64,000 nucleotides of DNA from Squalus acanthias (GCA_030390025.1 JASTWF010000034.1:4526001-4590000), one strand, 5' to 3'; shown: positions 7,931 through 64,000, counted from the stretch's first letter. Translations and numbers: made by a program. Notes: generated from the sequence alone by a model not told the origin.

Positions 7931-8052
7931 TGAGCCGAACCAGGGTTTGATAAAGGTTCATTATAACATCCTTGCTTTCAACTCTATGCCTCTATTTATG
8001 AAATTGAGAGGTCGCACAACACCAGGTTATAGTCCAACAGTTTTATTTGAAA

Positions 8053-8090
8053 TCACAAGCTTTCGGAGCTATCGCTCCTTCCTCAGGTGA
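8053..8090 (-). ncRNA. Minimal type I hammerhead ribozyme (PLE family 1)
   Basis: Minus strand reads UCAC-CUGAGGA-A-GGAGC GAUA GCUCC-GAAA-GCUU-GUGA: conserved core, stem II, palindromic stem III (AGCU) and stem I UCAC/GUGA. Confidence 0.85.
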
Positions 8091-8424
8091 AGTAAATTGG
8101 ATACAGAATCGCCAGAGCATATATAGATGGAAAAAAAAGCATGTGTACTTTACAATTGCAGACCAATAAATTAAATCATCCTGACTATCTGCCGAGGTGT
8201 GATAAAGTTAATTAAGTCAGCCAGGAAGGTACCACATCAAAAGACATAGCAAGATACAACTGAGACAATGAGGTGTAGTCGCAGGGGTTCCAACGTGTCA
8301 AAAGCTGCCGTCTGTATGTAAAACGAAAAGCTTTAAAAAAAAATTTACTTTTTTACTGGGAAAATTTTTACTTTTTTACTGGGAATCACATCTGTGAACA
8401 AGCTAACGACGACTCGAGTCCGGA

Positions 8425-11103
8425 TCACGTCATGTATCGTGACATAAACCCAAGATCCCGATTGAGACCGTCTTCATGAGTGCGGAACTTGGCTATCAGT
8501 TTCTGCTCGATGATTTTGCGTTGTCGTGTGTTTCTAAGGTTGCCTTGGAGAACGCTTACCCGCAGATCCGAGGCTGAATTTCCTTGACTGCTGAAGTGTT
8601 CCCCGACTGGGAGGTAACAATCCTGCCTGGCGATTGTTGCGCGGGGCTCGTTCATACGTTGTCTCAGTGTCTGCATGGTCTCGCCGATGTACCATGCCGC
8701 GGTGCATTCTTTCCTGCAACGTATGAGGTACACAACGTTGGCCGAGTCACATGAGTATGTACCATGTACCTGGTGGGTAGTGTCCTCACGTGTGATGGTG
8801 GTATCTGTGTTGATGATCTGGCATGTCTTGCAGAGTTTGCCATGGCAGGGTTGTGTGGTGTCGTGGTCGCTGTTATCCTGAAAGCTGGGTAATTTGCTGC
8901 GAACGATGGTACTTCTGAGGTTAGGCGGCTGTTTGAAGGCAAGTAGTGGAGGCGTGGGGATGGCCTTAGCGAGGTGTTTGTCGTCATCGATGACATGTTG
9001 AAGGCTGCGAAGAACATGTCGTAGTTTCTCCGCTCCGGGGAAGTACTGGACGACGTAGGGTACCCTGTTGGTTGTGTCCCGTGTTTGCCTTCTGAGGAGG
9101 TCTATGCGATTTTTCGCTGTGGCCCGTCGGAACTGTCGATCGATGAGTCGAGCGTCATATCCCGTTCTTACGAGGGCGTTTTTCAGCGTCCGTAGGTGTC
9201 CATCGCGTTCCTCCTCGTCTGAGCAGATCCTGTGTATTCGCAGGGCTTGTCCATAGGGGATGGCTTCTTTAACATGGTTAGGGTGGAAGCTGGAGAAGTG
9301 GAGCATCGTGAGGTTGTCCGTGGGCTTGCGGTAGAGTGAAGTGCTGAGGTGTCCGTCTTTGATGGAGATTCGTGTGTCCAGGAATGAGACCGATTCTGAG
9401 GAGTAGTCCATGGTGAGTTTGATGGTGGGATGGAACTTGTTTATGTTATCGTGTAGTCTTTTCAGTGATCCTTCGCCATGGGTCCAAAGGAAGAAAATGT
9501 CGTCGATGTATCTGGTGTACAGCGTTGGCTGGAGGTCCTGTGCAGCGAAGAAGTCTTGCTCGAACTTGTGCATGAAGATGTTGGCGTATTGGGGTGCGAA
9601 TTTGGTCCCCATGGCTGTTCCGTGTGTTTGGGTAAAAAAATGGTTGTCGAAGGTGAAGACATTGTGGTCAAGGATGAAGCGGATGAGTTGTAGGATGGCG
9701 TCTGGAGATTGGCTGTTTTTGATGTTGAGTACTGAGGCTGTTGCAGCGATTCCGTCATCGTGGGGGATACTGGTGTAGAGTGCCGATACGTCCATCGTGG
9801 CAAGGAGTGTTCCTGGTTCAACTGGTCCGTGGGTGCTGAGTTTCTGTAAGAAGTCTGTAGTGTCGCGACAGAAGCTGGGGGTTCCCTGTACGATGGGTTT
9901 CAGAATGCCCTCGACGTATCCAGAGAGGTTCTCACACAGGGTTCCATTGCCTGATACGATAGGACGTCCGGGTGTGTTGGCTTTGTGTATCTTTGGGAGG
10001 CAGTAGAAGTCTCCCACGCGGGGAGTACGTGGGATGAGAGCGCGTAGGATGTTTTGAAGGTCTGGATCGAAGGTCTTGATCAGTCTATTGAGTTGGCGGG
10101 TGTGTTCTTTGGTCGGATCTGCGGGTAGCTGTCTGTAGTGTTCCTGGTTGTCCAGTTGTCGGTATGCTTCTTTACAATAGTCCGTTCTGTTCTGTATGAC
10201 GATGGCTCCTCCTTTGTCCGCTGGTTTGATGACAATGTTGCGGTTGGTCTTGAGAGCGTGGATGGCGTTGCGTTGTGCTCGGGTGACATTCTGGACTGTC
10301 TTGTGAGTGCGGCTGATGAATCTGGCGTTGATGCATTTCCTGACAGCTTGAGCATACATGTCAAGCTTGGGGCAGCGACCCTCCGGAGGGGTCCAGTTTG
10401 ACTCTTTTTTCTTCGGTTGCTGCACTGCGAGTCCCTCTGTCTGCTGTTCTGGATCATTGATTGTCTCATTGGGTTTGTTGCTGACATCTTGGGATTTGTG
10501 GAAGTATTCCCGGAGCCTCATTCTCCTGATGAATTCCTCCGTGTCTGCCGCGAGACCGATGGGGTCCATTTTGGTGGTTGGGCAGAACTTGAGCCCTAGG
10601 GCGAGAACTTCGATTTCGTCTGGTTGAAGGGTATGGTCGGACAAGTTGACGATGGACTTCCCTGTGGTTGCAGCCGTGGTACCGGGGGAGGCTTGGTTGC
10701 TGCTGGTGGTGATGCCGAGTTTCTCAAGCTTCCTGTTCTTGATGCGCATGTAGGCAGCGTAGTTCCGTTGCCTCGTCTGTTTGGTGGTGTCTCGTAACTG
10801 GTCTGCTGTGTCCTGAGCACAGGCTGAGAGCATGGACTCTATCTTGGTTTCGAGGTTGTGGCGTTTGCTGTAGAGCTGGTGTACGAGATGGTTGAGGAGT
10901 GTGCGAGAGGTACGACGGCAGAGTCTCTCAGCGTAGTCTGTGTTGTATGTCGACTTGAGTGGGTTCGTGATCTGTAGTCCTTTCGGGATCTTGTCTGCTT
11001 TCTTGCATCTCTGTAGATACTTGATGTCGGTGTCGATATGCGCGATCTTCTTGGCGATTCTCTCCACTTTGAGCCGGCAGTTTGTGGTGTCGATAGTGGT
11101 CAT
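8425..11103 (-). CDS. Penelope-like RT + GIY-YIG endonuclease polyprotein, ~892 aa from the first ATG (Neptune-like)
   Basis: Motifs IKPADKGG, PKIHK...GRPIVS, DVSALYTSI, GTAMG, RYIDD, Cys linker PCHGKLCKTC and NVVYLIRC...YIGET. The frame is uninterrupted. Confidence 0.93.
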   Translation of the reverse strand: MTTIDTTNCRLKVERIAKKIAHIDTDIKYLQRCKKADKIPKGLQITNPLKSTYNTDYAERLCRRTSRTLLNHLVHQLYSKRHNLETKIESMLSACAQDTADQLRDTTKQTRQRNYAAYMRIKNRKLEKLGITTSSNQASPGTTAATTGKSIVNLSDHTLQPDEIEVLALGLKFCPTTKMDPIGLAADTEEFIRRMRLREYFHKSQDVSNKPNETINDPEQQTEGLAVQQPKKKESNWTPPEGRCPKLDMYAQAVRKCINARFISRTHKTVQNVTRAQRNAIHALKTNRNIVIKPADKGGAIVIQNRTDYCKEAYRQLDNQEHYRQLPADPTKEHTRQLNRLIKTFDPDLQNILRALIPRTPRVGDFYCLPKIHKANTPGRPIVSGNGTLCENLSGYVEGILKPIVQGTPSFCRDTTDFLQKLSTHGPVEPGTLLATMDVSALYTSIPHDDGIAATASVLNIKNSQSPDAILQLIRFILDHNVFTFDNHFFTQTHGTAMGTKFAPQYANIFMHKFEQDFFAAQDLQPTLYTRYIDDIFFLWTHGEGSLKRLHDNINKFHPTIKLTMDYSSESVSFLDTRISIKDGHLSTSLYRKPTDNLTMLHFSSFHPNHVKEAIPYGQALRIHRICSDEEERDGHLRTLKNALVRTGYDARLIDRQFRRATAKNRIDLLRRQTRDTTNRVPYVVQYFPGAEKLRHVLRSLQHVIDDDKHLAKAIPTPPLLAFKQPPNLRSTIVRSKLPSFQDNSDHDTTQPCHGKLCKTCQIINTDTTITREDTTHQVHGTYSCDSANVVYLIRCRKECTAAWYIGETMQTLRQRMNEPRATIARQDCYLPVGEHFSSQGNSASDLRVSVLQGNLRNTRQRKIIEQKLIAKFRTHEDGLNRDLGFMSRYMT

Positions 11104-11190
11104 GATGCGGAGATGCCGGTGTTGGACTGGGGTGGACAAAATTGAGAGGTCGCACAACACCAGGTTATAGTCCAACAGTTTTATTTGAAA

Positions 11191-11228
11191 TCACAAGCTT
11201 TCGGAGCTATCGCTCCTTCCTCAGGTGA
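11191..11228 (-). ncRNA. Minimal type I hammerhead ribozyme (second tandem copy)
   Basis: Identical to 8053-8090. It lies ~90 nt upstream of the ORF ATG at 11103. Confidence 0.85.
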
Positions 11229-11562
11229 AGTAAATTGGATACAGAATCGCCAGAGCATATATAGATGGAAAAAAAAGCATGTGTACTTTACAATTGCAGA
11301 CCAATAAATTAAATCATCCTGACTATCTGCCGAGGTGTGATAAAGTTAATTAAGTCAGCCAGGAAGGTACCACATCAAAAGACATAGCAAGATACAACTG
11401 AGACAATGAGGTGTAGTCGCAGGGGTTCCAACGTGTCAAAAGCTGCCGTCTGTATGTAAAACGAAAAGCTTTAAAAAAAAATTTACTTTTTTACTGGGAA
11501 AATTTTTACTTTTTTACTGGGAATCACATCTGTGAACAAGCTAACGACGACTCGAGTCCGGA

Positions 11563-12900
11563 TCACGTCATGTATCGTGACATAAACCCAAGATCCCGAT
11601 TGAGACCGTCTTCAAGAGTGCGGAACTTGGCTATCAGTTTCTGCTCGATGATTTTGCGTTGTCGTGTGTTTCTAAGGTTGCCTTGGAGAACGCTTACCCG
11701 CAGATCCGAGGCTGAATGTCCTTGACTGCTGAAGTGTTCCCCGACTGGGAGGTAACAATCCTGCCTGGCGATTGTTGCGCGGTGCTCGTTCATACGTTGT
11801 CTCAGTGTCTGCATGGTCTCGCCGATGTACCATGCCGCGGTGCATTCTTTCCTGCAACGTATGAGGTAGACAACGTTGGCCGAGTCACATGAGTATGTAC
11901 CATGTACCTGGTGGGTAGTGTCCTCACGTGTGATGGTGGTATCTGTGTTGATGATCTGGCATGTCTTGCAGAGTTTGCCATGGCAGGGTTGTGTGGTGTC
12001 GTGGTCGCTGTTATCCTGAAAGCTGGGTAATTTGCTGCGAACGATGGTACTTCTGAGGTTAGGCGGCTGTTTGAAGGCAAGTAGTGGAGGCGTGGGGATG
12101 GCCTTAGCGAGGTGTTTGTCGTCATCGATGACATGTTGAAGGCTGCGAAGAACATGTCGTAGTTTCTCCGCTCCGGGGAAGTACTGGACGACGTAGGGTA
12201 CCCTGTTGGTTGTGTCCCGTGTTTGCCTTCTGAGGAGGTCTATGCGATTTTTCGCTGTGGCCCGTCGGAACTGTCGATCGATGAGTCGAGCGTCATATCC
12301 CGTTCTTACGAGGGCGTTTTTCAGCGTCCGTAGGTGTCCATCGCGTTCCTCCTCGTCTGAGCAGATCCTGTGTATTCGCAGGGCTTGTCCATAGGGGATG
12401 GCTTCTTTAACATGGTTAGGGTGGAAGCTGGAGAAGTGGAGCATCGTGAGGTTGTCCGTGGGCTTGCGGTAGAGTGAAGTGCTGAGGTGTCCGTCTTTGA
12501 TGGAGATTCGTGTGTCCAGGAATGAGACCGATTCTGAGGAGTAGTCCATGGTGAGTTTGATGGTGGGATGGAACTTGTTTATGTTATCGTGTAGTCTTTT
12601 CAGTGATCCTTCGCCATGGGTCCAAAGGAAGAAAATGTCGTCGATGTATCTGGTGTACAGCGTTGGCTGGAGGTCCTGTGCAGCGAAGAAGTCTTGCTCG
12701 AACTTGTGCATGAAGATGTTGGCGTATTGGGGTGCGAATTTGGTCCCCATGGCTGTTCCGTGTGTTTGGGTAAAAAAATGGTTGTCGAAGGTGAAGACAT
12801 TGTGGTCAAGGATGAAGCGGATGAGTTGTAGGATGGCGTCTGGAGATTGGCTGTTGTTGATGTTGAGTACTGAGGCTGTTGCAGCGATGCCGTCATCGTG
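11563..12900 (-). pseudogene. 5'-truncated duplicate of the PLE ORF (RT C-terminal half + GIY-YIG)
   Basis: Near-identical to 8425-9762. The N-terminus of ORF 11563..13002 comes from the inverted segment. Confidence 0.9.
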
Positions 12901-14290
12901 ACCCATCGTACAGGGAACCCCCAGCTTCTGTCGCGACACTACAGACTTCTTACAGAAACTCAGCACCCACGGACCAGTTGAACCAGGAACACTCCTTGCC
13001 ACGATGGACGTATCGGATCCCGAAAGCTTTTTTAACCACTTTCTAAACCTGCCCTGATACCTTTAATGATTTGTGCATATATACCCCCAGGTCCCTTTGT
13101 TCCTGCACCCCCTTTAGAATTGTACCCTTTAGTTTCTCTTGCATCTCCTCGTTCTTCCTACCAAAATGTATCATAGAGTTATCGTCACCACTTCGCACTT
13201 TTCTGTTTTAAATTTCATCTGCCACGTGATAACCAGGGAAAGAGTAGTGCCCATTAGGGACCAAAGTGGCAATCTGTGTGTAGAGCCGGAAGATGCAGGT
13301 GAGGTTTTAAATGAATATTTTGCCTCTGTGTTCGCTATCATCCCGCTCCCACGCGCCTATCCCCCAAGCATATCTATCAGCGGAGATCCGACCTGAACGG
13401 CAGAGGCGGGCGAGCCAATTTAAATTATTATTAGCTGTTTGTCAGACCTTTAAGAGTGGCTTTAACCTTAACCTTAAATTTAACTGGATGGACATGGGAA
13501 ACACGCTGCTCGGGAACCACATCTGTCAACCTGAGGCAGGATTTCAGTTGCCATTACTCCAGCTGATTACTTGACAGCATCAAATGTATAGCAAAACTCG
13601 AACCTGACAGCTGATACTTTCCTCAGCAGAGCTGTTTCTCACTGCATTCTCAGCACAGATTCTGCAGGTTAGAGCCTTTCCAGCAAAGTTTCCATCCAGT
13701 GTCACCTCATTGGGAGAATCTCTCTCACTATTGACAGATTGCTTCTGTCATCTCTACTTCACCTGCCATCTATTCCATCAGCATGGATGCCGTTTATACT
13801 GTCTCACCTTGGTCCTTAGAATCTGACCACGATGAGCCCCAACACCAGCAGCATCAGGCACACCAGCAGCACCAACAACAACACCACCAACCTTCTCCGC
13901 AATCACTTGATGCTGCAGAGGACAGAGCGCATCAGCACCCGAGCACATTGCTGTCCCGCAGACCAGGGCTGGCCTCACCATGGAGAGATTTACTTCACTT
14001 GACGCTGTTCACCCTTGCAGCTGCCACATGATGCTCCAGGTTGGCACCACCCCACAGCAACACCGTAAAGCATCCCTGCAATGACCAAGCCGTTCCTTTC
14101 ACACTCACCACCATTGCTGGAGGTACCGTTATGTCTCACCATTCACTGTATCTCATTAATCCACTTGCAAAGGTGCACACACATCTGTCCAAGACCGGAA
14201 AGTGTTGAAAATATGGATTTTGATGTTTGACAGTACATTAACGGAAACTTTATATAAACATTCGATAAAACACCCAAGTGGCTACCCTTG

Positions 14291-15016: not shown

Positions 15017-16318
15017 CTTGTGTGTCATCTTTCTCTTCTGCATGTATCTACGAGGAGCTAGCCCTGTGGCTTCAGCAGAGGTAGAGGCAGCCTGCTCACT
15101 TCCCTGCTGCCAAGGAGGTGGAGAGCACCTTGCTGCACAGAAGTGAGGCCATGAGGACCCACGTCTATGCTGACATCACTCTTAGAGAGGAGGTCTATGA
15201 GCCTCTGCCATCTATTCTCTATTGGTCATGATGTGGAGATGCCGGCGTTGGACTTGTGTGGACAAAAATGAGAAGTCGCACAACACCAGGTTATAGTTCA
15301 ACAGTTTTATTTGAAATCACAAGCTTTCGGAGTTGCTGACGAAGGAGCAGCAGCAGCTGCAGAGTGGTGGTCTCTGTGACCAGGAAGAGGAGAAGGAGAA
15401 GGAGACCAGACAGCAGACCACCACCAACAACCATCCACAACCACAACTGAGGTGCCTCGAGAGAGAGGACAGGAGAGGAGAAAGAAAAGAAAGGAAGGCC
15501 AAGGCCATTAACACCAGAGGAGAGGCCTTTCCACACTGCCTCCTCAATTGGCCTCCATTTTAGGAGAGGGAGAGAGGGGAGAAAACAACACAACATCCAT
15601 CAACTGTTTGGAAGGAGGAAGGAAGGAAAGAACAACAGCTACAGGTGGGTGTGATTCTGGTGCACTCTCCCAGAGACTTTGTTTTGTAGGTGGGGGGAGG
15701 AAAGAAGAAAAGAAGAGGGCCGGAACATCCAAGGGGTGTGTGTGTGTGTGTGTGTGACTTCTGTAAAAGCTAGGCCGCACACACCATATTAAACACCCCC
15801 ATCCCATTGCCTGACCTGGGACAGCTGGAGCTGCCTAGGTGAAGTCCCCAATTAATTTAATCTTATTGGGCATCGTTAAGACCTGGTGCAGGACTGAGCC
15901 TGGGCATCTCCAGCTATCCCAGGTGAAGACATCTTCTCCCCCCACCAGAAGACCACCACCAAAGACTTTTATTACATCGGAGAGTGCACCCCCCTGCCAA
16001 CACCCACCCACCCACCATCCTGAGTGGCGACCCTGCCCTTGCGGCTTCCCTCCTTCCCACCCCCCCCTCTCTCTCTCTCTTTGTCTCTTGTCTCTCTCTG
16101 CCTCTCTCTCTAAGAGGCACCTCAATCTATTTTAATTAAGTACCTATTGAGCAGAGAGGAGAAGGCCCCTCTCCCAATTAATTCATATAAAGGGAGAGGT
16201 GTGCCTTCAATTTAAGAGCTCCCTCTGCTCAGGGGAAAACAGAAACAAAAAACCGAGGACATTAACACCTTCAGGCCTGTGACTTGGGGTGAGTGTAGCC
16301 CTTAAAGACCAACCCATC

Positions 16319-18472
16319 ATGGCGACCACATCTTCGCCGGTGGCGGGGGCAGCGATGACATACGCAAGCGTGGCAGCCGCGGCCACGGCCGCAGCCACGA
16401 GTCCTCCTGTTACCCCGTCACCTTTTACCCTCCTTACGAGGAAGAATTGGGTCAAGAGCTACACTCACCCCAATATGACAATAGAGGCGTGCGTAAAAGC
16501 CATGGCTGGGGTTGTCGGCCCTTCAGCCATCGTCGCCGCCTCTAAAATGTACGGCAAGGCTGTGTTCTTCCTAGGGTCGGAGCGGGCGGTGTCCCTGGCC
16601 ATCGAGAAGGGGCTCACCGTGGGCGGGACCTTCCTGCCGGTGGACCCCCTTGAGGCCACCGCGCAAAGGATTGTGGTTTCCAACGTCCCGCCCTTTGTTC
16701 CGGGTGAGCTCCTCCTCCCCCACCTACGTCAACTGGGGGAGGTGAGGTCGGGGATCACACCCATCCCGCTCGGCTTCCGGGAAGCCAGCCTTCGGCACGT
16801 CTTCTCCTTCCGGCGCCAGCTTTTCGTCCGGCTGGCGCGGGAGGAGGACGCGGATGGCGCGTTCACGGTGCTCCACGGGGGGACCGCCCACCGCGTCTTC
16901 TGGACCTCGGACGGCGTGCGGTGCTACGCCTGTAAGGAGGTGGGGCACGTCCGCAAAAACTGCCCCGCCTCCAAGGCCGCCACGACACCTGGCGCGGCCA
17001 GGGTTGGCGCCGCCGCCCCCCCTCCCCCTGATACTGTCCGCGCGTCGACGGCGACGGTTGCGCGGTCGAAATCGGAGGCCAACACCACCACGGCCTCCGG
17101 CGGGGAGGAGGGAGAGCGTCCGGGGGGAAGGAAGGCGCGTAGGAAAAATAAACACCGAAGGGCGGATCCCCTCGCGGAGGAAACATCAGAGTTGACCGAA
17201 CTCACGCCCGAGTACATCGCGGAGTTGGTCGGGACGCATGAGATTGGGGGGGTCCTCGTGCCCGGGCCCGTGACCGTGACCGCAACTGCTGAGGCAGCTA
17301 AATGAAGACCTGCGGCCGGGCTCGGGCCCGAGGGGCCCAAGAAACCCAGTCGTCGGAAGGGGGCAGAGAGGGAGGCCCCAGCAGACATGGAGGCCTCCCC
17401 CTCTCCGGGCCCCAACTTGTTAAAAAGAAAGCTCCGCCCCCAGCAGGAGGACTGCGAGGAGGAAGGTCCCTCCGCAAAAGGGGGGCAGTCGCCCGCCGCG
17501 GGTGCTGCGCCCCACCCCACCACCGTCATCGTCGCGTGCGATCGGCAGGGGTCGTCTGTCCCTCGGGAGGGTGAGACAGCCGAGTCTGTCCGACCTGTGC
17601 CTCCCGGGGATGGGGAAGAGACCCTGCCCGTGGGGGGGGGCGCGGAACAACCCGCGGAGGGAAATGTAGTTCCGGAACCGTTGCTCCTCGCCGGGTCGGG
17701 CGTCCTGGGGACTGGGGCGGGTGAGGCCAGAGAGGCTGAAGCCGAGCCCGCCTTTTATAACCCAGATATCTCCCAGGGACTGCTCGACCTGGTGGAGGAT
17801 TATAACAATCCCCAGCCCGCTGGGTCGGAGGTTGGTGGCGGTGAAACAGAAAGCCCCCTGACTCCGTCTCTGATGTTGGCGCCGGACGTACTGGAGGAAT
17901 TTGAGATTATTTTCTCCCCGGTTTCTCCGGTCGCTCCGGCGCCTGAGGCGGGGGGGGGCCCCGAACCGCCGCCGCCTCCCGGCCCGGCGCCCCTGAAGGA
18001 GCCCAGGGTGGACTCCTCTGCCACCGATCCTGGGGGTGGGATCGTGACGGAGGCGGGGCCGGCCGGTGCGGCCGAGCCGTTCGCTGCACCCCGTGTGACG
18101 GACGGGTTGGCAGCTGGTGACGACCTCCCGGAGGAGGACGGGGACTCGGTGTTGGGCACCGAGGACGATTTGGAGTCCATCAGCAGCGAGGCGATGGACG
18201 CCCTCGTGCCCTTCACCGACTCTCCCCTCATCCCCGTAGGGGAACTCCGGGATTTTATGGCCATGAGCCAGGGTCGTCACAAGAAGATCCGGCTGGCCCT
18301 CGACAAGTGGTCGGAGCTGGCGCTGCTCGTCGTGTCCGTCCGCGCCGCCGTTAAAATCATGGGCGCGGACAAGGACGTTGGCCGGCTCGAGCTGCGTCGG
18401 CTCAAGAGTTTCCACACTGGGCTGCTGAGGGAGTGGCGGTCGTCAGTGACCGCGCTCCCTCCCCTCCGTTAG
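16319..18472 (+). pseudogene. Tx1 ORF1 (gag-like, CCHC knuckle) with one in-frame TGA at 17303-17305
   Basis: ORFs 16289..17305 and 17387..18472 are in the same frame with no other stop between them. Motifs ASKMYGKAVFF, SNVPPF, SFRRQ and CYACKEVGHVRKNC. Confidence 0.85.
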
Positions 18473-18497
18473 GTAGAGGTTGCACTATGCTTCTGAG

Positions 18498-21400
18498 ATG
18501 AAGATAACCATAGCCAGCCTCAACATCAACGGCAGCAGGGAGGCGCACCGTAGATTCAATAACTTCTCGGTCCTTCGGGACGGGAAATATGCGGTGTGCT
18601 TCCTGCAAGAAACCCACACCGTTCCGGGAGACAAGGCCACGTGGCTCCTGGAGTGGCAAGGAGGGGTCAGCATGAGTCACCTCTCCAACAATTCCTGCGG
18701 GGTGGCTGTCTTGCTGGCCCCGCATTTTCAGCCAGAGATCTTGAGGGTCAAGGAGCACGTGCCGGGCCGCTTGCTCCAGGTCACTGTTCGCCTGGGAGGC
18801 GTGCCGCTCCATTTAGTGAACGTGTACGCCCCCCGGACCGGTGCGCAGCAAGTGCGCTTCTTCGGAGAAGTGTCTGCTCTTCTGGGCTCCATCGACGTGG
18901 GCGAGTGCGTCATCCTCGGGGGGTATTTCAATTGTACCCTCGAGGCGCGGGACCGGTCGGGTCCCCCGCGAAGCCCGGCGGCGATGGAGAAGTTGCGGGA
19001 CCTGGTCGGGTCCTTCGACATGGTGGACGTCTGGCGAAATCTCCATCCCGACTCCAGCGCCTTCACGAGCGTGAGGTCTGGAGGAGGAAGGTCCAGAATC
19101 GACTGCCTTTACATTTCCCGGGCGTACGTCTCCTGCGTTCCGGCGGCTTCCATGCGGCCGGTGCCGTGCACGGACCACCACCTGGTGTGGGCGGAGCTCG
19201 CTCCGCTGCGCGCGCGGGGGGGGTCCGCGTACTGGCATTTTAACAACCTGCTGCTGGAGGACGCGCGGTTCCGGGATTCGTTTCGCCGGTTCTGGGCCGA
19301 CTGGAGAAGGAAGCGGGGAGGCTTCCCCTCCTTGAGGCTATGGTGGGACGTGGGCAAGGCTCACGTCCGCGTCTTCTGTCAGGAGTACGCGAAGGGGTCG
19401 ACCAAGAGGCGGGAGGCCTGGGTCGGGCGATTGGAGAAAGAAGTGCTCGACCTGGAGTCCCGTCTCGGTCAAGCCGTCGAGGACCCGGCCCTGCGGAAGG
19501 TGTACGAAGAGAAGAAGGGCGCGCTGAAGGACCTGCAGCTGGTCGGGTCCCGAGGCGCGTGTGTGAGGTCGCGGACCCAGTTCCTGCGGGACCTGGACCG
19601 CGGCTCCCCCTTCTTCTACTCGCTGGAAAAAAGACGGGGGGTCCGTAAGCAGCTCTTGGGGCTGCTGGCCGACGACGGATCTCTGGTCTCGGATCCGGAG
19701 GGCATCAGCGCGGAGGCCCGGGCCTATTACGGGGCTCTGTTCTCTTCGGATCCGTCCAGCGAGGATGCGCGCAGAGTTTTGTGGGAGGACCTGCCGAAGG
19801 TCGGCCCGGAGGGCGCCGAGAATTTAGAAGCTCCGCTAAGCCTGGCGGAGCTGACCGGCGCCCTGCGCCAGCTCTCGAGGGGCAAGTCCCCGGGGCTGGA
19901 CGGGCTGACCGTGGAGTTCCACAGGGCGTTCTGGGACGTCTTGGGGGACGACTACGCGCGGGTCCTGGGGGAAAGTCTGGCGACCGGGGAGATGCCCCTC
20001 TCTTGGCGCAGGGCAGTCATCGTCCTGCTGCCCAAGAAGGGCGATCTCCGCCTACTTAAGAACTGGCGCCCGGTCTCCCTCCTCAGCACGGACTACAAAA
20101 TTTTCGCCAGGGCTATGTCTGCTCGCCTTGGCACCGTGCTGGCCCGCATGATCCACCCCGACCAGTCCTACACGGTCCCGGGCCGGAGTATCCACGATAA
20201 CATCCATCTGGTCCGGGACCTGGTCCACCATTCCCAGAGGGCTGGTCTGTCGGTCGCCTTCCTTTCCCTGGATCAGGAGAAGGCGTTCGACAGGGTGGAT
20301 CACGAGTATCTTTTCGGGACTCTGCGCGCATTCGGGTTCGGGACGCATTTCGTCGCCCGGATCCGACTTCTGTACGCCGCCGCGGAGTGTCTCATTAAAG
20401 TTAACGGGTCTTTGACGGCGCCCCTTCGCTTCGGGAGGGGGGTGCGTCAGGGATGCCCCATGTCCGGTCAGTTATACGCTGTTTGCGTGGAGCCTTTCCT
20501 GCGCCTCTTGCGGAAGAGGTTGACGGGACTGGCTCTGCAAGGGCCGGGCGTGGATGTGGTCCTCTCGGCTTACGCCGATGACGTGCTCCTCGCGGTCACG
20601 GATCCCGTCGACTTGCGGAGGATGCGAGAATGCCAGCAGATTTACTCGGACGCATCCTCCGCCAAGATCAACTGGGAGAAATGTTCTGGACTCCTGGTGG
20701 GCCCATGGCAGGTGGAGTCCCTGCCGGAGGAGTTCGGGCCTTTCGCCTGGAGCACCACGCACCTCCTCTACCTGGGAGTCTACCTCAGCCCGGCCGAGGA
20801 CGCCTGGCCGGCGAACTGGCAAGAGCTGGAGGCCAAAGTCACCGCTCGCCTAGGGAGCTGGACAGGACTGCTCCGAGTGTTGTCCTACAGGGGTCGAGCG
20901 CTGGTCATAAACCAGCTGGTGGCCGCCATGTTGTGGTACCGGTTGGTCACTTTGATCCCTCCCCCTGCGTTTGTCGCCAAGGTGCAGAAGAAGCTCGTCG
21001 ACTTCTTCTGGGACAAAAGGAAGCACTGGGTCTCTGCCGCGGTTTTGAGTCTCCCGCTTAGGGAGGGCGGTCAGGCGCTGGTGTGCCTTCGCACCCAGGC
21101 GGCGACTTTCCATCTTCAGACGCTGCAGAGATACCTGTACGTGGAGAATCCTCCTAGGTGGCGTGCGCTGGCAACGTATTTCTTCCGCCAGCTGCACGGC
21201 CTCAATTACGACACGCAGCTCCTGTTTGTGAGAGTGGGTGGCACGCATGCCAGCCTGCGGGAGCTGCCTGTCTTCTACCAGGAACTGCTATGGGTTTGGA
21301 ACAGCGTCGCCTCCGAGCGCAGTTCTCCCCCATCAGGAGCGGCGGCCGTCCTTCGGGAGCCGCTGTTCAGGAATCCGCACCTCCACGACCGCGTTTTCGG

Positions 21401-22397
21401 CTGGCTGGCGGAGGGCAGGGCTGTGCCCGGTAAGGTGACCAGAGTCGGGGACCTGCTCGATGGCGGAGGAGTGGGCTGGATGGCGCCAGAGGAGTTGGCG
21501 AGGCGCATGTCCTGGGTCTACGTCCGGCTCGCGGTCAAAGCCATCGAGTTGCTAAAAGTGGCACTGGGCCCCGTCTCCACTAGGTGTGTCGAGGAGGCTC
21601 AAGCACGTGGGGCGATCCCGTCCGAACTGACCCCCGTTCGGACGGAATTCCTTATCGGCGCCCGGCCCCGAATCCTCCCTCGGGAGCCGCCGCCTCACCA
21701 CTTGAGCCTTCTCGGAGAAATGCCCTCCGTGCCCTTTCAATCCGCACGGAGGCGTTTCCTGTACGGGCTGCTCCTGCACACTCTCCACTTTGCCATCTTC
21801 GTCTGCCGTCCGGACACGCCTTGGCGTACCATCCTGCCGTCCGGCGGAGGCGAAGGTCCCCATTGGAAGGCTCTCTACGCGGGAGTCTTCCCTTGTTCTA
21901 TTGGGGACTTGGCCTGGAGGGTGTTGCACGGAGCAGTCCCGTGCAATAGGATTTTAAGTAGGTTTACGGACTCCCAGGCTGCTTGCCATTTCTGCGGCCT
22001 GGAGGAGTCCGTCTATCACATTTATATTGAGTGTGAGAGGTTGCAGCCCCTCTTTCATTATTTGAAGGGGCTGCTCCTCAATTTCTGGTTGCACTTCAGC
22101 CCCACGCTCCTGATCTACGGTCACCCGGTGCGGAGGGGAGCGGGTAGGTCGGAGGACCTCCTCGTAGGACTGCTCCTGGGCCTTGCCAAGAAAGCCATTA
22201 ATTGGTCCAGGCAGCGGGCGGTCGAGGGGGTCGTTCGGCCCGATTGCCTGCCTCTCTTCCGCGGCCATGTTCGCGCCCGGGTGGCCCTGGAGATGGAGCA
22301 CGCGGTGTCCGCCGGCACGCTTGAGTTTTTCCGCGACCGGTGGGCGCCGCGGGGGCTGGAGTGCATCGTCACGCCGGACTTCCAAATTTTGATTTGA
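18498..22397 (+). CDS. Tx1 ORF2: APE endonuclease + reverse transcriptase + C-terminal CCHC, 1299 aa
   Basis: Motifs SLNING, LQETH, NVYAP, GGYFN, SRID, TDHH, SPGLDG, NWRPVSLL, DQEKAFDRV, GVRQGCPMS, YADD and CHFCGLEESVYHIYIEC. The frame is open throughout. Confidence 0.93.
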   Translation: MKITIASLNINGSREAHRRFNNFSVLRDGKYAVCFLQETHTVPGDKATWLLEWQGGVSMSHLSNNSCGVAVLLAPHFQPEILRVKEHVPGRLLQVTVRLGGVPLHLVNVYAPRTGAQQVRFFGEVSALLGSIDVGECVILGGYFNCTLEARDRSGPPRSPAAMEKLRDLVGSFDMVDVWRNLHPDSSAFTSVRSGGGRSRIDCLYISRAYVSCVPAASMRPVPCTDHHLVWAELAPLRARGGSAYWHFNNLLLEDARFRDSFRRFWADWRRKRGGFPSLRLWWDVGKAHVRVFCQEYAKGSTKRREAWVGRLEKEVLDLESRLGQAVEDPALRKVYEEKKGALKDLQLVGSRGACVRSRTQFLRDLDRGSPFFYSLEKRRGVRKQLLGLLADDGSLVSDPEGISAEARAYYGALFSSDPSSEDARRVLWEDLPKVGPEGAENLEAPLSLAELTGALRQLSRGKSPGLDGLTVEFHRAFWDVLGDDYARVLGESLATGEMPLSWRRAVIVLLPKKGDLRLLKNWRPVSLLSTDYKIFARAMSARLGTVLARMIHPDQSYTVPGRSIHDNIHLVRDLVHHSQRAGLSVAFLSLDQEKAFDRVDHEYLFGTLRAFGFGTHFVARIRLLYAAAECLIKVNGSLTAPLRFGRGVRQGCPMSGQLYAVCVEPFLRLLRKRLTGLALQGPGVDVVLSAYADDVLLAVTDPVDLRRMRECQQIYSDASSAKINWEKCSGLLVGPWQVESLPEEFGPFAWSTTHLLYLGVYLSPAEDAWPANWQELEAKVTARLGSWTGLLRVLSYRGRALVINQLVAAMLWYRLVTLIPPPAFVAKVQKKLVDFFWDKRKHWVSAAVLSLPLREGGQALVCLRTQAATFHLQTLQRYLYVENPPRWRALATYFFRQLHGLNYDTQLLFVRVGGTHASLRELPVFYQELLWVWNSVASERSSPPSGAAAVLREPLFRNPHLHDRVFGWLAEGRAVPGKVTRVGDLLDGGGVGWMAPEELARRMSWVYVRLAVKAIELLKVALGPVSTRCVEEAQARGAIPSELTPVRTEFLIGARPRILPREPPPHHLSLLGEMPSVPFQSARRRFLYGLLLHTLHFAIFVCRPDTPWRTILPSGGGEGPHWKALYAGVFPCSIGDLAWRVLHGAVPCNRILSRFTDSQAACHFCGLEESVYHIYIECERLQPLFHYLKGLLLNFWLHFSPTLLIYGHPVRRGAGRSEDLLVGLLLGLAKKAINWSRQRAVEGVVRPDCLPLFRGHVRARVALEMEHAVSAGTLEFFRDRWAPRGLECIVTPDFQILI

Positions 22398-22501
22398 TTT
22401 ATTAAGTTTCATTTAAAGTTTTAATTGATTTACAGTAAATTTTGATTTGTCCAACCAAAAAGAGCAACACCAGGTTATAGTCCAATAGATTTATTTAAAA
22501 T

Positions 22502-22537
22502 TACAAGCTTTCGGAGCTGTCGCCCCTTCCTCAGGTA
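22502..22537 (-). ncRNA. Minimal hammerhead ribozyme (PLE family 2, minus arm)
   Basis: Minus strand reads UAC-CUGAGGA-A-GGGGC GACA GCUCC-GAAAGCUU-GUA. Confidence 0.8.
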
Positions 22538-23194
22538 GAGTTACTGTGAGACAATCTATTAGAATTCACAGAAACTAAACACAGAGAAAATGCATTCAAT
22601 CTTTCCCTACATCAAAGACACACTAAGAGCACAGCCAAGACAATGAGATGTGTCCCAGGGGGTCCAACGTGTCAAAACACCTGCTGGCTGCATATCCTCT
22701 CCATTTGGGTTTGTTTCTTGTGTTTGTTTTTTTAAAAAGCTGGAAAGACCGGCAACGATGTCAAGTCACGTTCTGTATCGTGACATGAACCCGATATCCC
22801 GATTGAGGCCATCCTCATGAGTGCGGAACTTGGCTATCTTCTCCAAGGCGGCCTTCGGGATACACGACAACGCAAAATCATCGAGCAGAAACTGATAGCC
22901 AAGTTCCGCACTCATGAGGATGGCCTCAATCGGGATATCGGGTTCATGTCACGATACAGAACGTGACTTGACATCGTTGCCGGTCTTTCCAGCTTTTTAA
23001 AAAAACAAACACAATAAACAAACCCAAATGGAGAGGATATGCAGCCAGCAGGTGTTTTGACACGTTGGACCCCCTGGGACACATCTCATTGTCTTGGCTG
23101 TGCTCTTCGTGTGTCTTTAATGTAGGGAAAGATTGAATGCATTTTCTCTGTGTTTATATTCTGTGAATTCTGATAGATTGTCTCACAGTAACTC

Positions 23195-23230
23195 TACCTG
23201 AGGAAGGGGCGACAGCTCCGAAAGCTTGTA
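23195..23230 (+). ncRNA. Minimal hammerhead ribozyme (PLE family 2, plus arm)
   Basis: TAC CTGAGGA A GGGGC GACA GCTCC GAAAGCTT GTA read directly on the plus strand. Confidence 0.8.
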
Positions 23231-24062
23231 ATTTTAAATAAATCTGTTGGACTATAACCTGGTGTTGTGCGACTTCTCATTTTTATCTATTCTCTATACA
23301 TAGCCATCTATCCTCCATAAAGATCATGTGTTCCTCCGACTGGCACATTAGCTGCTCCATGTAGCTGCCCATCCTATCCATGGAGGAGCCTACAGTCACC
23401 ATGGGCTGTGACATGCTGGTGGTCATGTTGCAGATGGGCTCCTCCATTCTCTGAACATTTGCAGACATCGCGCTCGTAAAACCTGTCAGAGCCCCCTGCA
23501 CTTCTTGCTGCACCTCCAGGATCGCCCTCTTTCTGGATGGCCCCCGAGGCTCAGCGTCTGCATGCAGCTGAGCAGAGCTGGGAGCGTCCTGCGCCCTAAG
23601 GCAAGGAGTCTCCACTGCTGTCCCTGTGTCCACCATCTGCTCTTGCACACTTGTAAGTTATGAGACACCAGGTTACAACACTACTCTATCTCGTGTGGGA
23701 CTCACCGAGGTTTGCGTGTCTGCCCTTGTATTGGGTGAGCTTATGTCTGGTGATGGTGAGCCCTCAGAGGCTGGCGGCTCCACTGAGGAGTCATCTTCCT
23801 CTTCCTCCTGGACAGTGGAGGGGGGAGCTCTTGATGGACGTGTGGAAGAGTGAAGATATGAGTTGGATATGTCATATGAAGAATGGGTACAGATATCATT
23901 ATGCACACGATGACCATTCAGTGAGATGAGTGCCCATATGAGTGACGGATGTATGCCATGTAGCTTTATGATATGTAATTCTGTCACCAGGTTGCCGAGA
24001 TGTCCCACTTGCTCCGTCTCCCAACTCCAGCTGCTCGGCGATTCCAGATATTTCTATTGGAG

Positions 24063-49041: not shown

Positions 49042-50816
49042 TACATAGATACATAGATACATAGAAGATAGGAGCAGGAGTAGGCCATCCGGCCCTTCGA
49101 GCCTGCTCCGCCATTTAATGAGATCATGGCTGATCCTCCAATTCAGTATCCCGTCCCCGCCTTCTCTCCGTAACCCTTAACCCCTTTTGCCTGTAGAAAT
49201 ACATCTAATTCCCTCTTAAATATATTTAATGAGCTGGCGTACACTGCCCTCTGTGGCAATGAGTTCCACAGGTTCACCACCCTCTGAGTGAAGAAATTCC
49301 CCCTCATTTCTGTCCTAAATGGTTTAGCCCTTATCCTTAAATTATGTCCTCTAGTTCTGTTCTCACCCGCCAAGGGAAACATTCCTTCTGCATCTAGTCT
49401 GTCTAGACCTTTCAGAATTTTATACACTTCTATGAGGTCCCCTCTCAATCTTCTAAACTCCAGTGTGTACATCCCTAAACTACATAGTCTCTCCTCATAG
49501 GTCAATCCCGCCATTCCTGGTATCAGCCTGGTGAATCGCCGCTGCACCCCCTCCATGGCAAGAACATCTTTCCTCAGATGAGGCGACCAAAACTGTACAC
49601 AGTACTCGAGGTGTGGTCTCACCAGTGCCCTGTACAGCTGCAGCAAGGTATCCCTGTTCCTGTATTCCAACCCTTTTGCTATGAAGGCCAGCGTACCGTT
49701 TGCCTTCTTGATCGCCTGTTGCACCTGCATGCTCGCCTTCAGTGACTGGTGTACAAGAACACCCAGGTCTCTCTGTACTTCCCCCTCTCCCAATTTATTG
49801 CCATTTAAATAATAATTTGCCCTCCCGTTCCTGCACCCAAGGTGGATAACTTCGCACTTGTCCACATTATAGTGCATCTGCCATTTATCCGCCCAATCAC
49901 CCAGTCTGTCCAAATCGCTCTGGAGCTTCCTGGTCTCCTCCTCTGAGCCCACCCCCCCTCCTAGTTTAGTGTCGTCTGCAAATTTGGAAATGCTGCATCC
50001 GACTCCCTGATCCAGGTCATTAATGTAAATTGTGAACAGCTGGGGACCCAGGACAGATCCCTGTGGTACCCCACTTGTTACTGCCTGCCATTTAGAAAAT
50101 GAGCCGTTTATTCCAACTCTCTGTTTTCTATCTGACAGCCAGTTCTCTATCCACGTCAATACTTTCCCCTTTATCCCATGAGCTTCAATTTTCCCTGCTA
50201 ATCTTTTATGTGGGACCTTATCGAAGGCCTTTTGGAAGTCCAGGTACACCACATCTACTGGCTCTCCCCCATCTATTTTACCAGTTACTCCCTCAAAAAA
50301 TTCCAATAGATTAGTCAAGCACGATTTACCCTTTGTAAATCCATGTTGACTCTGTCCTATCCTGTCCCCATTTGCTAAGTGCTCCGCTATTTCATCCTTA
50401 ATGATGGACTCCAGCATTTTGCCCACAACTGATGTAAGGCTTACAGGTCTGTAATTACCTGCTTTTTCCCTACCCCCCTTTTTGAATAGTGGGGTAACGT
50501 TAGCTACCCTCCAATCCATGGGCACTGTTCCCGAGTCTAATGAATTCTGAAAAATCATACTTAGTGCATCCGCTATCTCTAGGGCCACCTCCTTCAGCAC
50601 CCTAGGATGCATGGTATCAGGCCCTGGGGATTTGTCCGCCTTCAATCCCTTTCGCTTCCTTAACACCATATCCTTAGAGATATTGACTTGCGTCAGTTCC
50701 TCCTTTGCAAATGTCCCTATTTTTCCCGATATCCCAGGGAGGTTTTTTGTGTCTTCCTTCGTAAAGACTGACCCAAAGTATGCATTTAGTTGGTCTGCCA
50801 TTTCCTTATTTCCCGT
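49042..50816 (-). mobile_element. Young 5'-truncated CR1 with an open RT frame (49143..50801) and a (TCTATGTA)n tail
   Basis: Motifs SPGPD, NYRPVSLTS, DFQKAFDKV, SGVPQGS and FADD. It is inserted into the 30-bp satellite. Confidence 0.95.
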
Positions 50817-51699: not shown

Positions 51700-52600
51700 T
51701 GTACAACAATAACTTGTATTTAAATAGAACCTTTAACGTAGTAAAACGTTCCAAGGCGCTTCACAGGAGTATTTTAAGACAAACAATTTTGACACCGAGC
51801 CACAGAAGGATAAATTCGGACATGTGACCAAAGCTTGGTCAAAGTGGTAGGTTTTAATGAGCGTCTTCAACGTGGAAAGAGAGGTAGCGAGGCGGAGAGG
51901 TTTAGGCTGGGAATTCCAGACATTAGGACCAGGCAACAGAAGGCACGGCCACCAAATGTTGAGCGATTATAATCAGGGATGCTCAAGAGGGCAGAATTAG
52001 AGGAGCGCAGATATCTCGGGGGGTTGTGGGGCTGAAGGAGATAAGAGATAGGAAGGGGCGAGGCCATGGAGGGATTTGAAAACCAGGATGAGAATTTTGA
52101 AATCGAGGTGCTGCTTAACCGGGAGCCAGTGTAGGTCAGCGAGCACAGGGGAGATGGGTGAACGGGACTTGGTGCGAGTTAGGACACGGGCAGCCGAGTT
52201 TTGGATGACCTCAAGTTGACATATATATTTCTGCAGGCAAAAGGGGTTAAGGGTTACGGAGAGAAGGCGGGGACGGGATACTGAATTGGAGGATCAGCCA
52301 TGATCTCATTAAATGGCGGAGCAGGCTCGAAGGGCCGGATGGCCTACTCCTGCTCCTATCTTCTATGTATCTATGTATCTATGACATAGGGTGGAATGTG
52401 GGAGGCCAGACAGGAGTGCGTTGAAATAGTCAAGGCTAGAAGTAACAGGTCGTGTGGTAGGGCTGGGTGTCTTCAGCGTACATGTGGAAACCGACTGTGT
52501 TTTTGGATGATGTCACCAAGGGGCAGCATGTAGATGAGAAATAGAGGGTGTCAAGGAGAGATCCTTGGGAGACAACAGAGGTAACGATGTGGGAGCAGGA
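51700..52600 (-). mobile_element. L2-like LINE 3' fragment interrupted by a short CR1
   Basis: Minus-strand peptides SQGSLL...FHMYAEDTQ, YLRSSNSALL..P...STFGGRAF, VWNSQP and LKTLIKTYHF. Confidence 0.75.
52224..52381 (+). mobile_element. 158-bp 3' end of the young CR1 family with a 7-bp TSD
   Basis: Nearly identical to the 3' ends at 49042 and 54823. TSD TGACATA at 52217-52223 and 52382-52388. Confidence 0.88.
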
Positions 52601-62770: not shown

Positions 62771-63546
62771 ATACCCCACGCCCCTCACTGTAACACTTTG
62801 TGATATATTCTATTTCCCTCGCTGTAACACACTGATATACCCGACACCCCTCAATGTAACACACTGATATAACCCCAGACCCCTGACTGTAACACTCTGT
62901 TATACACCACACCCCTCACTGTAACACTCTGATATGCCCAACACCGGTCATTGCATTACTCTGATGTACCCTACACCCGTAACTGTAGCACTCTGATGCA
63001 AACCCACTCCCCTGACTACAACACTCTGATATACCCCACACATGCCTTCGTGTAACACACCGATATAACCCACACCCCTTATGGTAACAGTCTGATATAC
63101 GCCGCTCCCCTCAATTTAACACTCTGATATACCTCACACACCTCATTAACACTCTGATATACCCCATAATTTAATCCTCTCTTACATATTTCAAACCTCT
63201 CACTGTAACAGACCGATATACCCCACTCACATCCCTTTAACACTCTGATATACCCCACACCATTCACTTAAATTCTCTTACATATTCCAAACCTCTCACT
63301 GCAACAGACCGATATACCCAACTCCCCTCCCTTTAACACTCTGATATACCCCACAACCCTTGCTGTAACAATTTGATGTACCCCACACCCATCACTGTAA
63401 TAATCTGATATACCCCACACCCATCACTGTAATAATCTGATATACCCCACACCCCTCACTATATCACTCTGATATAAACCACACCCCTCACTGTAACACT
63501 CTGATATACCCCACACTCATGATTATAACACTCTCTTACATACCCC
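62771..63546. repeat. ~32-bp satellite in opposite orientation to 1616-3003
   Basis: Units cacacccctcactgtaacactctgatataccc. Confidence 0.9.
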
Positions 63547-64000
63547 AAGGAAGGCAAATGGTATGCTGGCCTTCATTACAAGAGGATTTGAGTACAGGAG
63601 TAAACAGGTCTTAATCCCTTGATATCGGACCTTGGTGAGACCGCACCTGGAGTACTGTTAACAATTTTGGTTTCCTTACCTTATTAAATAAATATTTGCC
63701 ATAGAGGGAGTGCAACGAAGGTTCACGAGATTGATTCCTGGGAAGGCGGATCTGTCGTATGAGAACTGATTGAGTAAACTAGGCCTGTATTCTCTTGAAT
63801 TCAGAAGAATGAGTGGGGATTTCATTGAAGCATAAACAATTATTACAGGGCTTGATAGTTTGGATGCTGGGAGAATGTTTCCCTTGGCTGGGGAGTCTAG
63901 AACCAGGGGCCACAGCCTCATGATAAAGGGTAGGCCATTGAGGACTGAGATGAGAATCATAGAAACATAGAAGATAGGAGCAGGAGTAGGCCATTCGGCC
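63547..64000. mobile_element. CR1 fragment (+, 63547-63957) followed by the tail of a minus-strand CR1 running out of the window
   Basis: KANGMLAFI...LVRPHLEYC coding, then catagaaacatagaagataggagcaggagtaggcc. Confidence 0.85.

Follow-up and report, generated by a model that had tools for sequence, protein, structure and literature searches.

A Tx1-clade retrotransposon family in Squalus acanthias prefers the ends of Penelope-like elements and carries an inherited, target-like 5' leader

Several long interspersed nuclear elements (LINEs) of the Tx1 clade are described as inserting into defined sequences: Xenopus Tx1 goes into the non-autonomous piggyBac element Tx1D, Keno targets U2 genes, and microsatellites receive Kibi and Koshi (PMC4494074). 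The same paper describes crocodilian families with other transposons as targets, with Tx1-Mar inserting into Mariner-N4_AMi, Tx1-8_Crp and Tx1-4_AMi into retrotransposons with long terminal repeats (LTRs), and Tx1-9_AMi into Harbinger. It also reports U1- or U2-derived 5' heads on some Tx1 families, and it proposes that co-transcription with the target strengthens specific integration. The Tx1L endonuclease is reported to nick almost only at its target (PMC1950540, PMC4494074), and upstream target sequence in the template of R2 and R1 is held to aid exact 5' joining (Eickbush 2000 and Fujimoto 2004, as cited in PMC4494074). Here we describe a Tx1-clade LINE that lies inside a Penelope-like element (PLE) in 64,000 nucleotides of the Squalus acanthias genome (GCA_030390025.1, JASTWF010000034.1:4526001-4590000; hereafter the window, with positions counted from its first letter), and we follow its relatives through the 3.7-Gb assembly. 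The insertion is very probably a copy of a young, high-copy LINE family that targets PLE ends and carries an inherited, target-like leader.

The Tx1 insertion and its host locus

The Tx1 insert occupies 15333 to 22464 (7,132 bp, + strand) and is antisense to its host PLE. Its 5' untranslated region (UTR; 15333 to 16318, +), which starts with ~24 nt TTGCTGACGAAGGAGCAGCAGC, is followed by open reading frame (ORF) 1 (16319 to 18472, +), by ORF2 (18498 to 22397, +; frame open from 18477, 1306 codons), and by a 3' UTR (22398 to 22464, +) that ends ...CCAACCAAAAAGAG and has no poly(A). ORF1 encodes a CCHC zinc knuckle (PF00098, E = 9.6e-5) and is interrupted in this copy by a single in-frame stop at 17303-17305. 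The domain order in ORF2 is an Exo_endo_phos domain of the apurinic/apyrimidinic endonuclease (APE) type (PF03372, E = 1.6e-5), a reverse transcriptase (RT) domain (PF00078 RVT_1, E = 9.7e-38), and a zf-RVT match (PF13966, E = 7.4e-5) that is too weak for the curated cut-off. The best full-length named match of ORF2 is the Xenopus "Transposon TX1 149 kDa protein" (YTX2_XENLA), with 50% identity over 99% coverage. An N-terminal APE-type endonuclease, an RT and a C-terminal zinc-binding region in ORF2, together with the CCHC motif in ORF1, are the features by which Tx1-clade elements are recognized, and the predicted layout would place the insert in that clade.

The surrounding block, 15223-23284, is a PLE foldback. 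Its inverted left arm is now split by the Tx1 into 15262-15280 and 22465-22838 (- strand; 3' UTR of a 5'-truncated PLE, identified as an inverted repeat and by BLAST against the full PLE), and its right part is a direct, slightly longer 5'-truncated PLE copy (22839 to 23284, +) whose own target site at 23248-23269 is empty. The arms have 374 nt in common and are 98% complementary, and the block is bounded by identical 13-bp target-site duplications of the foldback, ATCTATTCTCTAT, at 15210 to 15222 and 23285 to 23297, the outer flanks of which are unrelated. Reading from the left, a PLE tail of ~39 nt that corresponds to the 5' start of a PLE unit (15223 to 15261, -; it matches the reverse complement of 11138->11100) is followed by the last 19 nt of the host arm (15262 to 15280, -; ...TGCGACTTCTCATTTTT in PLE sense), which form the host side of the Tx1 5' junction. 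The Tx1 thus sits in the left arm 19-20 nt from the PLE 3' end. Between this host sequence and the Tx1 body lies a 52-nt PLE-like leader (15281 to 15332, +), of which positions 1-15 are possibly a target duplication and positions 16-52 (15296-15332) are inherited, as described below. A second 52-nt copy follows the Tx1 3' end (22465 to 22516, -) and belongs to the host PLE, of the "AAAATTAC" subfamily.

An earlier note on this DNA, made without access to the genome, had described the Tx1 as standing between two 52-bp PLE segments that end in a hammerhead, with three diagnostic differences between the segments. The sequences are as it described them, although the motif is better called hammerhead-like and has no Rfam match, and the subfamily assignments stand: the left copy agrees with the other PLE in the window at 8017-8068 at 51/52 positions (mismatch at position 18), the right copy agrees with the reverse complement of 23216-23267 at 51/52 (mismatch at position 22), and 17 nt immediately left of the left copy (15264-15280, AAAAATGAGAAGTCGCA) are the exact reverse complement of 23268-23284 and differ from 8001-8016. 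BLAST gives the same picture, with 95.6% over 68 nt to the copy at 8001 and 89.1% over 55 nt to the right arm. Left and right copies agree at 47/52 positions (pair L031/L001 in our set); positions 25, 33 and 38 are the three that the note had called diagnostic, but the differences number five, the other two (positions 18 and 22) being private changes, one in each copy. All five are explained if the Tx1 brought the left 52 bp with it and the host supplied the right 52 bp.

Site preference and leader inheritance across the genome

The last 265 nt of the Tx1 recovered 1274 first-look candidates in the assembly, and the 42 that were scored are 97-100% identical to it. An exact search with the terminal Tx1 16-mer and the 18 next bases found 319 3' ends, against 0 for the reversed control, and NAACACCAGGTTAT comes next at 255 of the 319, a proportion in which non-PLE junctions are somewhat under-counted since the pattern required a non-A last base. 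A hand count of the first 100 of these ends gave 74 of PLE type, 24 non-PLE and 2 unclear. Matches to the 3' end are spread over at least 30 large contigs. At the other end of the element, all 30 of the best-matching 5' ends sampled carry a PLE-like leader, upstream of which we found either the PLE 3' end GTCGCA (12 of 30, usually with the PLE tail further out) or the 3' end of another Tx1 (18 of 30), and head-to-tail Tx1 arrays with a period of ~7.18 kb are frequent. Sequence upstream of GTCGCA differs from locus to locus, tracking the host, and the stretch that corresponds to 15262-15280 changes in this way between loci while the leader does not.

The Tx1 family favors a single PLE position, at a distance of 19-20 nt from the 3' end, where it integrates antisense to the PLE; in Tx1 orientation this site reads GTCGCAC|AACACCAGGTTATA. 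The target region includes the stretches GTCGCA, CAACAC and CAGGTTATA, and the empty target 22-mer occurs 96,573 times in the 3.7 Gb. Kojima (2015; PMC4494074) treats a family as target-specific when a single sequence type makes up >20% of its flanks, and by that measure the 255/319 3' ends and 30/30 5' ends would class this family as target-specific. The flank survey that the earlier note had proposed therefore came out in favor of its suggestion that the family targets PLE ends, although the cut that it placed at GTCGCA|CAACACC probably lies one base further right, as discussed below.

Two further observations on 3' junctions concern sites other than the usual one. One group of 3' ends reads ...AAAAAGAG-TT-ACAC... 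(e.g., C4:106171970-106172003, C5:138521304-138521337 and C7:95775814-95775847), and these ends could represent a sister lineage whose target is different or less strict (xxACAC). At C1:61239089-61239122, a Tx1 3' end is followed by GAACACCGGCATCTCCGC, which is the CAACACCGG stretch of the PLE 5' start (the tail); this stretch gives the host element another CAACACC site, one that is seldom used.

In 14 of 18 matched left/right pairs the two PLE copies differ, and in 4 they are identical; the set is not random, since eight pairs were chosen for an unusual leader, and one locus (L002) enters with the first of its two 3' ends. The 64 differences are unevenly placed: positions 16-52 hold 60 of them, of which 9 stem from one host arm with its turning point at position 40 (L133/L124), position 1 holds 3, positions 12-15 hold 1, and positions 2-11 hold none. 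Counts across the genome agree with the pairs: the joint between the 52-nt leader of the GAAATCAC type and the Tx1 body has 514 exact occurrences, compared with 13 for leaders of TTAC types, to which the right copy in the window belongs, and TTAC types make up 6 of 26 host copies sampled at 3' junctions. We inspected all 10 loci to which the 13 exceptional junctions belong. A AATTTTAC leader stands in a host of a different type at 5 of them, in a matching host at 2 and in arrays at 2, and one AAAATTAC leader has a matching host. Variant leaders are thus themselves inherited, and the leader is occasionally swapped for the host version. In the subfamily of the window copy, the PLE-like leader passes from copy to copy and is not taken from each new host. 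The idea that the 52 bp travel with the Tx1 holds in this form, for positions 12-52; the further idea that they are a fixed part of its 5' end holds insofar as the leader is heritable, but its length is specific to the subfamily (52, 46 or 16 nt) and it is occasionally exchanged.

These lengths come from the first 20 PLE-type junctions in list order, where the 10 copies with a 5' end at the expected distance show three 5' forms: a 52-nt leader joined to CTGCTGAC, a 46-nt leader joined to GAAGGAGAGTGAGCAGC, and 16 nt only (CAACACCAGGTKATAG) joined to CCTCAGCAGCC, the last with 86 exact occurrences in the genome. Position 12 is G in 24 of these 86 junctions (hand count), only 60 PLE-context sites in the genome have G there, and the right copies of four position-12-G insertions carry T, from which we conclude that leader position 12 is inherited. 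As for the origin of the long form, the first ~24 nt of the 5' UTR include a 16-nt stretch whose reverse complement follows position 52 in the commonest host PLEs, and the host PLE at one locus (L021) shows a short foldback of the kind that matches it, which suggests that the 52-nt leader was captured from a short PLE foldback such as this one. A hybrid 5' end was seen at L054 (C3245:2033036-2036309), where 16 nt of target are followed by CCTCAGCAGCCA (the start of the 16-nt subfamily), leader positions 30-52 and CTGCTGAC; judged from this order, the copy looks like a recombinant between 5' forms.

The edges of the insertion can be placed more closely from the same junctions. For the first 100 3' ends of the NAACACCAGGTTAT type, a hand count of the base after the Tx1 gave C 50 times, G 47 times and A 3 times (C at 22465 in the window), while at all PLE-flanked 5' junctions the host side is GTCGCAC. 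This first base past the Tx1 3' end is most likely part of the element, and its contrast with the constant host sequence would place the nick at GTCGCAC|AACACC, so that the cut probably falls one base further right than in its earlier placement. Off-target, 5'-truncated copies reveal the stagger, with duplications of 15 bp at L005 and L017 and of 11-15 bp at L019, all starting with CAACAC, and truncated Tx1 units at L027 that are spaced by exactly 15 nt, CAACACCAGGTTATA; no duplication was seen at the off-target copies L008 and L028. At off-target CAACAC sites, then, the cut is staggered by ~14-15 bp. The L027 locus (C11:53063210-53066474) consists of head-to-tail repeats of the last ~300 nt of the Tx1 (from 22181), and similar repeats occur at C13:86874915 and 86875224; these may stem from a short derivative that is non-autonomous or from truncated insertions that recurred.

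A possible role for the leader, and competing explanations

Full-length copies, defined as those with a 5' end at a fixed offset of 7.1 kb, were found at PLE sites only. Among 20 PLE-site copies taken in list order, 10 were full length, 1 had Tx1 sequence at an offset and 9 had none; by the same offset, none of 20 non-PLE copies (one of them with offset Tx1 sequence) and none of 5 in another set was full length. A leader on full-length non-PLE copies was likewise sought, and 0/25 had a 5' end at the expected distance. We tentatively propose, as a possibility to which we would not yet commit ourselves, that the 5' copy of the target is no passive relic and that it permits full-length integration through pairing of the cDNA with the 14-15-nt overhang of the cut PLE. 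The endonuclease would nick the bottom strand beside (C)AACAC and the top strand ~15 nt downstream, and the Tx1 RNA would begin in or before the target-like leader and so contain it. The end of the cDNA could then pair with the 14-15-nt top-strand overhang of the PLE target and prime second-strand synthesis, yielding an exact full-length 5' junction, with mismatches resolved mostly toward the cDNA and rarely toward the host, the latter appearing as leader swaps. At non-PLE sites such pairing would be absent, and 5'-truncated copies would result. Each full-length insertion would also restore an intact target on its 5' side, and because the target is rebuilt in this way, repeated insertion into the restored site could build head-to-tail arrays with a period of ~7.18 kb.

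Several observations weigh against this account or against the broader reading on which it builds. About a quarter of the Tx1 3' ends lie away from the PLE site, and one 3'-junction group, GAG-TT-ACAC, makes up 14 of the first 100 and is never at a PLE. Duplicate haplotypes may account for many small contigs (flanks are shared within L006/L012 and within L107/L109), and the counts are therefore not all independent events. The 13 leader junctions that are host-like, with left equal to right in 3 of 8 non-tandem cases (C11, C30 and C3591), imply that the leader is on occasion replaced or acquired anew, which makes it less than strictly fixed. Leader positions 2-11 lack diagnostic variation, and as a result the boundary between host and element is bracketed only, between -1 and +12. 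The fixed offset scores copies with large indels as not full length (L085 and L105 have offset Tx1 sequence), and the start of the Tx1 transcript is a prediction from genomic junctions. Read contigs over 15200-15700 from four runs were short, and none spans the leader/body joint with 31 letters on each side; they cover the PLE portion at far greater depth than the Tx1 portion, a comparison that is uninformative on expression and on the start of the transcript.

Of the competing explanations, the one that fares best holds that the endonuclease reads only a short (C)AACAC and that the excess in PLEs comes mainly from pairing of the RNA and cDNA ends, by way of the 3' read-through base and the 5' leader, with the homologous target, or from better survival inside PLEs, and not from long-range recognition by the protein. 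It would accommodate off-target insertions that have only CAACAC or xxACAC in common, the restriction of full-length copies to PLE sites, the target-like 5' end carried by the element and the inherited first base past the 3' end. We nevertheless consider it unlikely. Copies of the 16-nt subfamily, which has little homology, are still at PLE sites; 5'-truncated copies, to which 5' pairing offers no gain, likewise favor the PLE site (a 5' end is lacking in 9 of 20 PLE-site copies); a random hexamer is expected by arithmetic ~1.8 million times in 3.7 Gb, compared with 96,573 PLE sites that take ~75% of the insertions; and the Tx1L endonuclease is itself reported to be highly specific (PMC1950540).

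A second explanation is that a few Tx1-in-PLE loci were amplified at the DNA level, by segmental duplication or unequal crossing-over, and that the apparent specificity is an artefact of copying. The common arrays of ~7.18-kb period, the flanks shared by L006/L012, L008-L010 and L107/L109, and the many small contigs in the assembly speak for it, but host PLEs vary by locus in subfamily, arm length, foldback center and outer flanks, matches lie on at least 30 large contigs, and truncation points vary among copies, which together make this explanation very improbable.

Still harder to sustain is a true 52-bp target-site duplication at the window locus, with its five differences arising by later mutation, by gene conversion from other PLEs or by mis-assembly. 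The copies are equal in length and in register, and left equals right in 4 of the 18 pairs; against this, 14 of the 18 pairs differ with the element-type leader always on the left, off-target or truncated copies duplicate only 14-15 bp, and a sister subfamily has just 16 nt at its 5' junction. The arms of the same host are 98% alike, so that decay in place does not account for as many as five changes in 52 nt. That dozens of loci share this architecture speaks against local mis-assembly, one of the findings that the earlier note had named as counting against its interpretation. For the Tx1 family as a whole a 52-bp target-site duplication is refuted, given the mismatched pairs and the off-target duplications of 11-15 bp. 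Equally implausible is a leader added anew at each insertion, with the RT switching from the 5' end of Tx1 RNA to plentiful antisense transcripts of the PLE subfamily that is commonest, since, although the leader does match that subfamily, such switching is expected to scatter the joints, and the leader/body joint is base-exact in 514 copies and specific to each subfamily (46-nt form, 16-nt form and AATTTTAC lineage).

We therefore return to a family that targets PLE ends and inherits a target-like leader. How the 5' end of a LINE becomes attached to the chromosome is still poorly understood, and the hundreds of young Tx1 copies described here provide paired junctions that separate bases of the host from those of the element. 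They show inheritance, with occasional exchange, of a target-like leader, and full-length copies are seen only where the leader matches the target. If leader-aided integration is correct, the family would be a natural, genome-scale record of LINE 5'-end attachment, in which leader swaps mark the position of the crossover and the longer leader (52 nt, 514 junctions) has out-competed the 16-nt form (86 junctions). For annotation, the family accounts for recurring 7.2-kb arrays and apparent "52-bp duplications" in the Squalus acanthias genome.

The host element, other features of the window and known systems

The reference for PLE ends, orientation and tail is a full-length unit of the "GAAATCAC" subfamily at 8001 to 11138 (- strand). 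The PLE open frame (8425-11190, 921 codons) has an RVT_1 match with E = 1.2e-8. BLAST within the window places a tandem PLE junction at 11139, with a truncated unit preceding the full one, and this arrangement fixes the 3' end of the PLE (...GGTGTTGTGCGACCTCTCAATTTT) as well as the 5' point where the following unit begins (GTCCACCCCAGTCCAACACCGG...ATG). At 7990-13062, a 499-codon frame of the 5'-truncated unit reads into the full-length unit, and the two PLE 3' UTR repeats are 99.8% identical over 500 nt. A GIY-YIG domain was sought in the PLE frame without a Pfam match, also when the last 200 residues were scanned at E<=10, and without a relative in PDB; the nearest Atlas clusters (score 0.98) combine RVT_1 with GIY-YIG on part of their members, which we treat as a lead only, and a VVY...YIGET motif was spotted by eye. 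The single RT-bearing ORF, the terminal repeats that stem from partial copies in tandem, the tail, and the inverted copies truncated at the 5' end are traits of PLEs, and point to the host being one. Compared with the PLEs described in PMC4209133 and PMC11167929, the host here is alike in its long RT ORF, in its tandem, terminal-repeat layout, in its ~39-nt tail (an optional tail of 30-40 bp is described in PMC11167929), in its head-to-head partial copies and in its CUGANGA/bulged-A/helix II/GAAA/AGCU motif. Empty PLE target sites often occur genome-wide in +/- pairs 85-700 nt apart, and short head-to-head PLE foldbacks are therefore very common in this genome.

A descriptor scan located the minimal hammerhead-like motif in the left arm (22505 to 22534, -; core 22534->22505), where CUGAGGA, a bulged A and a 5-bp helix II are followed by GAAAGCUU, and in the right copy (23198 to 23227, +). 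The window motif fits the minimal hammerhead form that PMC4209133 describes for PLEs. The descriptor (CUGANGA, bulged A, 5-bp helix II, GAAA-GCUU) fits 32 instances in the retrieved DNA, across which helix II is kept, with one-sided changes only, and the loop and N7 vary. Rfam reported no hammerhead in the whole window at the gathering score or in 22400-23350 at E<=10, giving only chance microRNA and small RNA matches, and from its sequence we keep the label "hammerhead-like" for the motif. In PLE sense, the Tx1 insertion is downstream of GAAAGCUU in the motif, at a distance of ~45 nt. Processing of the Tx1 RNA by this ribozyme was considered and rejected, since the motif is on the opposite strand and cannot act on that RNA; since the Tx1 runs opposite to the PLE and the predicted cleavage site is ~45 nt away, no tie to ribozyme function is demonstrated.

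Elsewhere in the window, a very long array of 24-nt units extends from 27615 to ~47000, with ~800 registers at 24-nt spacing and occasional 47- or 71-nt steps. Three 161-nt segments (49044-49204, 52223-52383 and 54833-54993) are 99% complementary or identical and form inverted pairs, and larger inverted repeats of 75-83% join 1600-2900 and 62900-63950.

The word "Penelope" has 0 occurrences in the main text of PMC4494074, and Tx1 targeting of PLEs was not found in the open full-text literature searched, whose coverage leaves Repbase Reports and subscription journals outside. The closest described system is Tx1L of Xenopus laevis, which inserts into Tx1D and resembles the present family in ORF2 (50% identity), in domain order and in the use of a single site inside a multicopy transposon; it differs in that the target here is a retroelement, a PLE entered near its 3' end and in antisense, and in the inherited 5' copy of the target found here. 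R2 and R1, LINEs of the ribosomal DNA, share the idea of a target co-transcript and differ in clade and endonuclease. R2 trims its co-transcript with its own ribozyme. The crocodilian Tx1 families are alike in inserting into fixed regions of other transposons, retrotransposons included, and, for some of them, in carrying heritable 5' heads that come from an RNA gene targeted by relatives; as described in PMC4494074, those heads are derived from small nuclear RNAs and are unlike the current target, whereas the leader here matches the current target and rebuilds it. Transposon targeting and target-derived 5' heads are already known in the Tx1 clade, and the new part is the target: PLEs join the list of Tx1 targets, with one retroelement living almost wholly in the tails of another, where ~96,000 sites are free.

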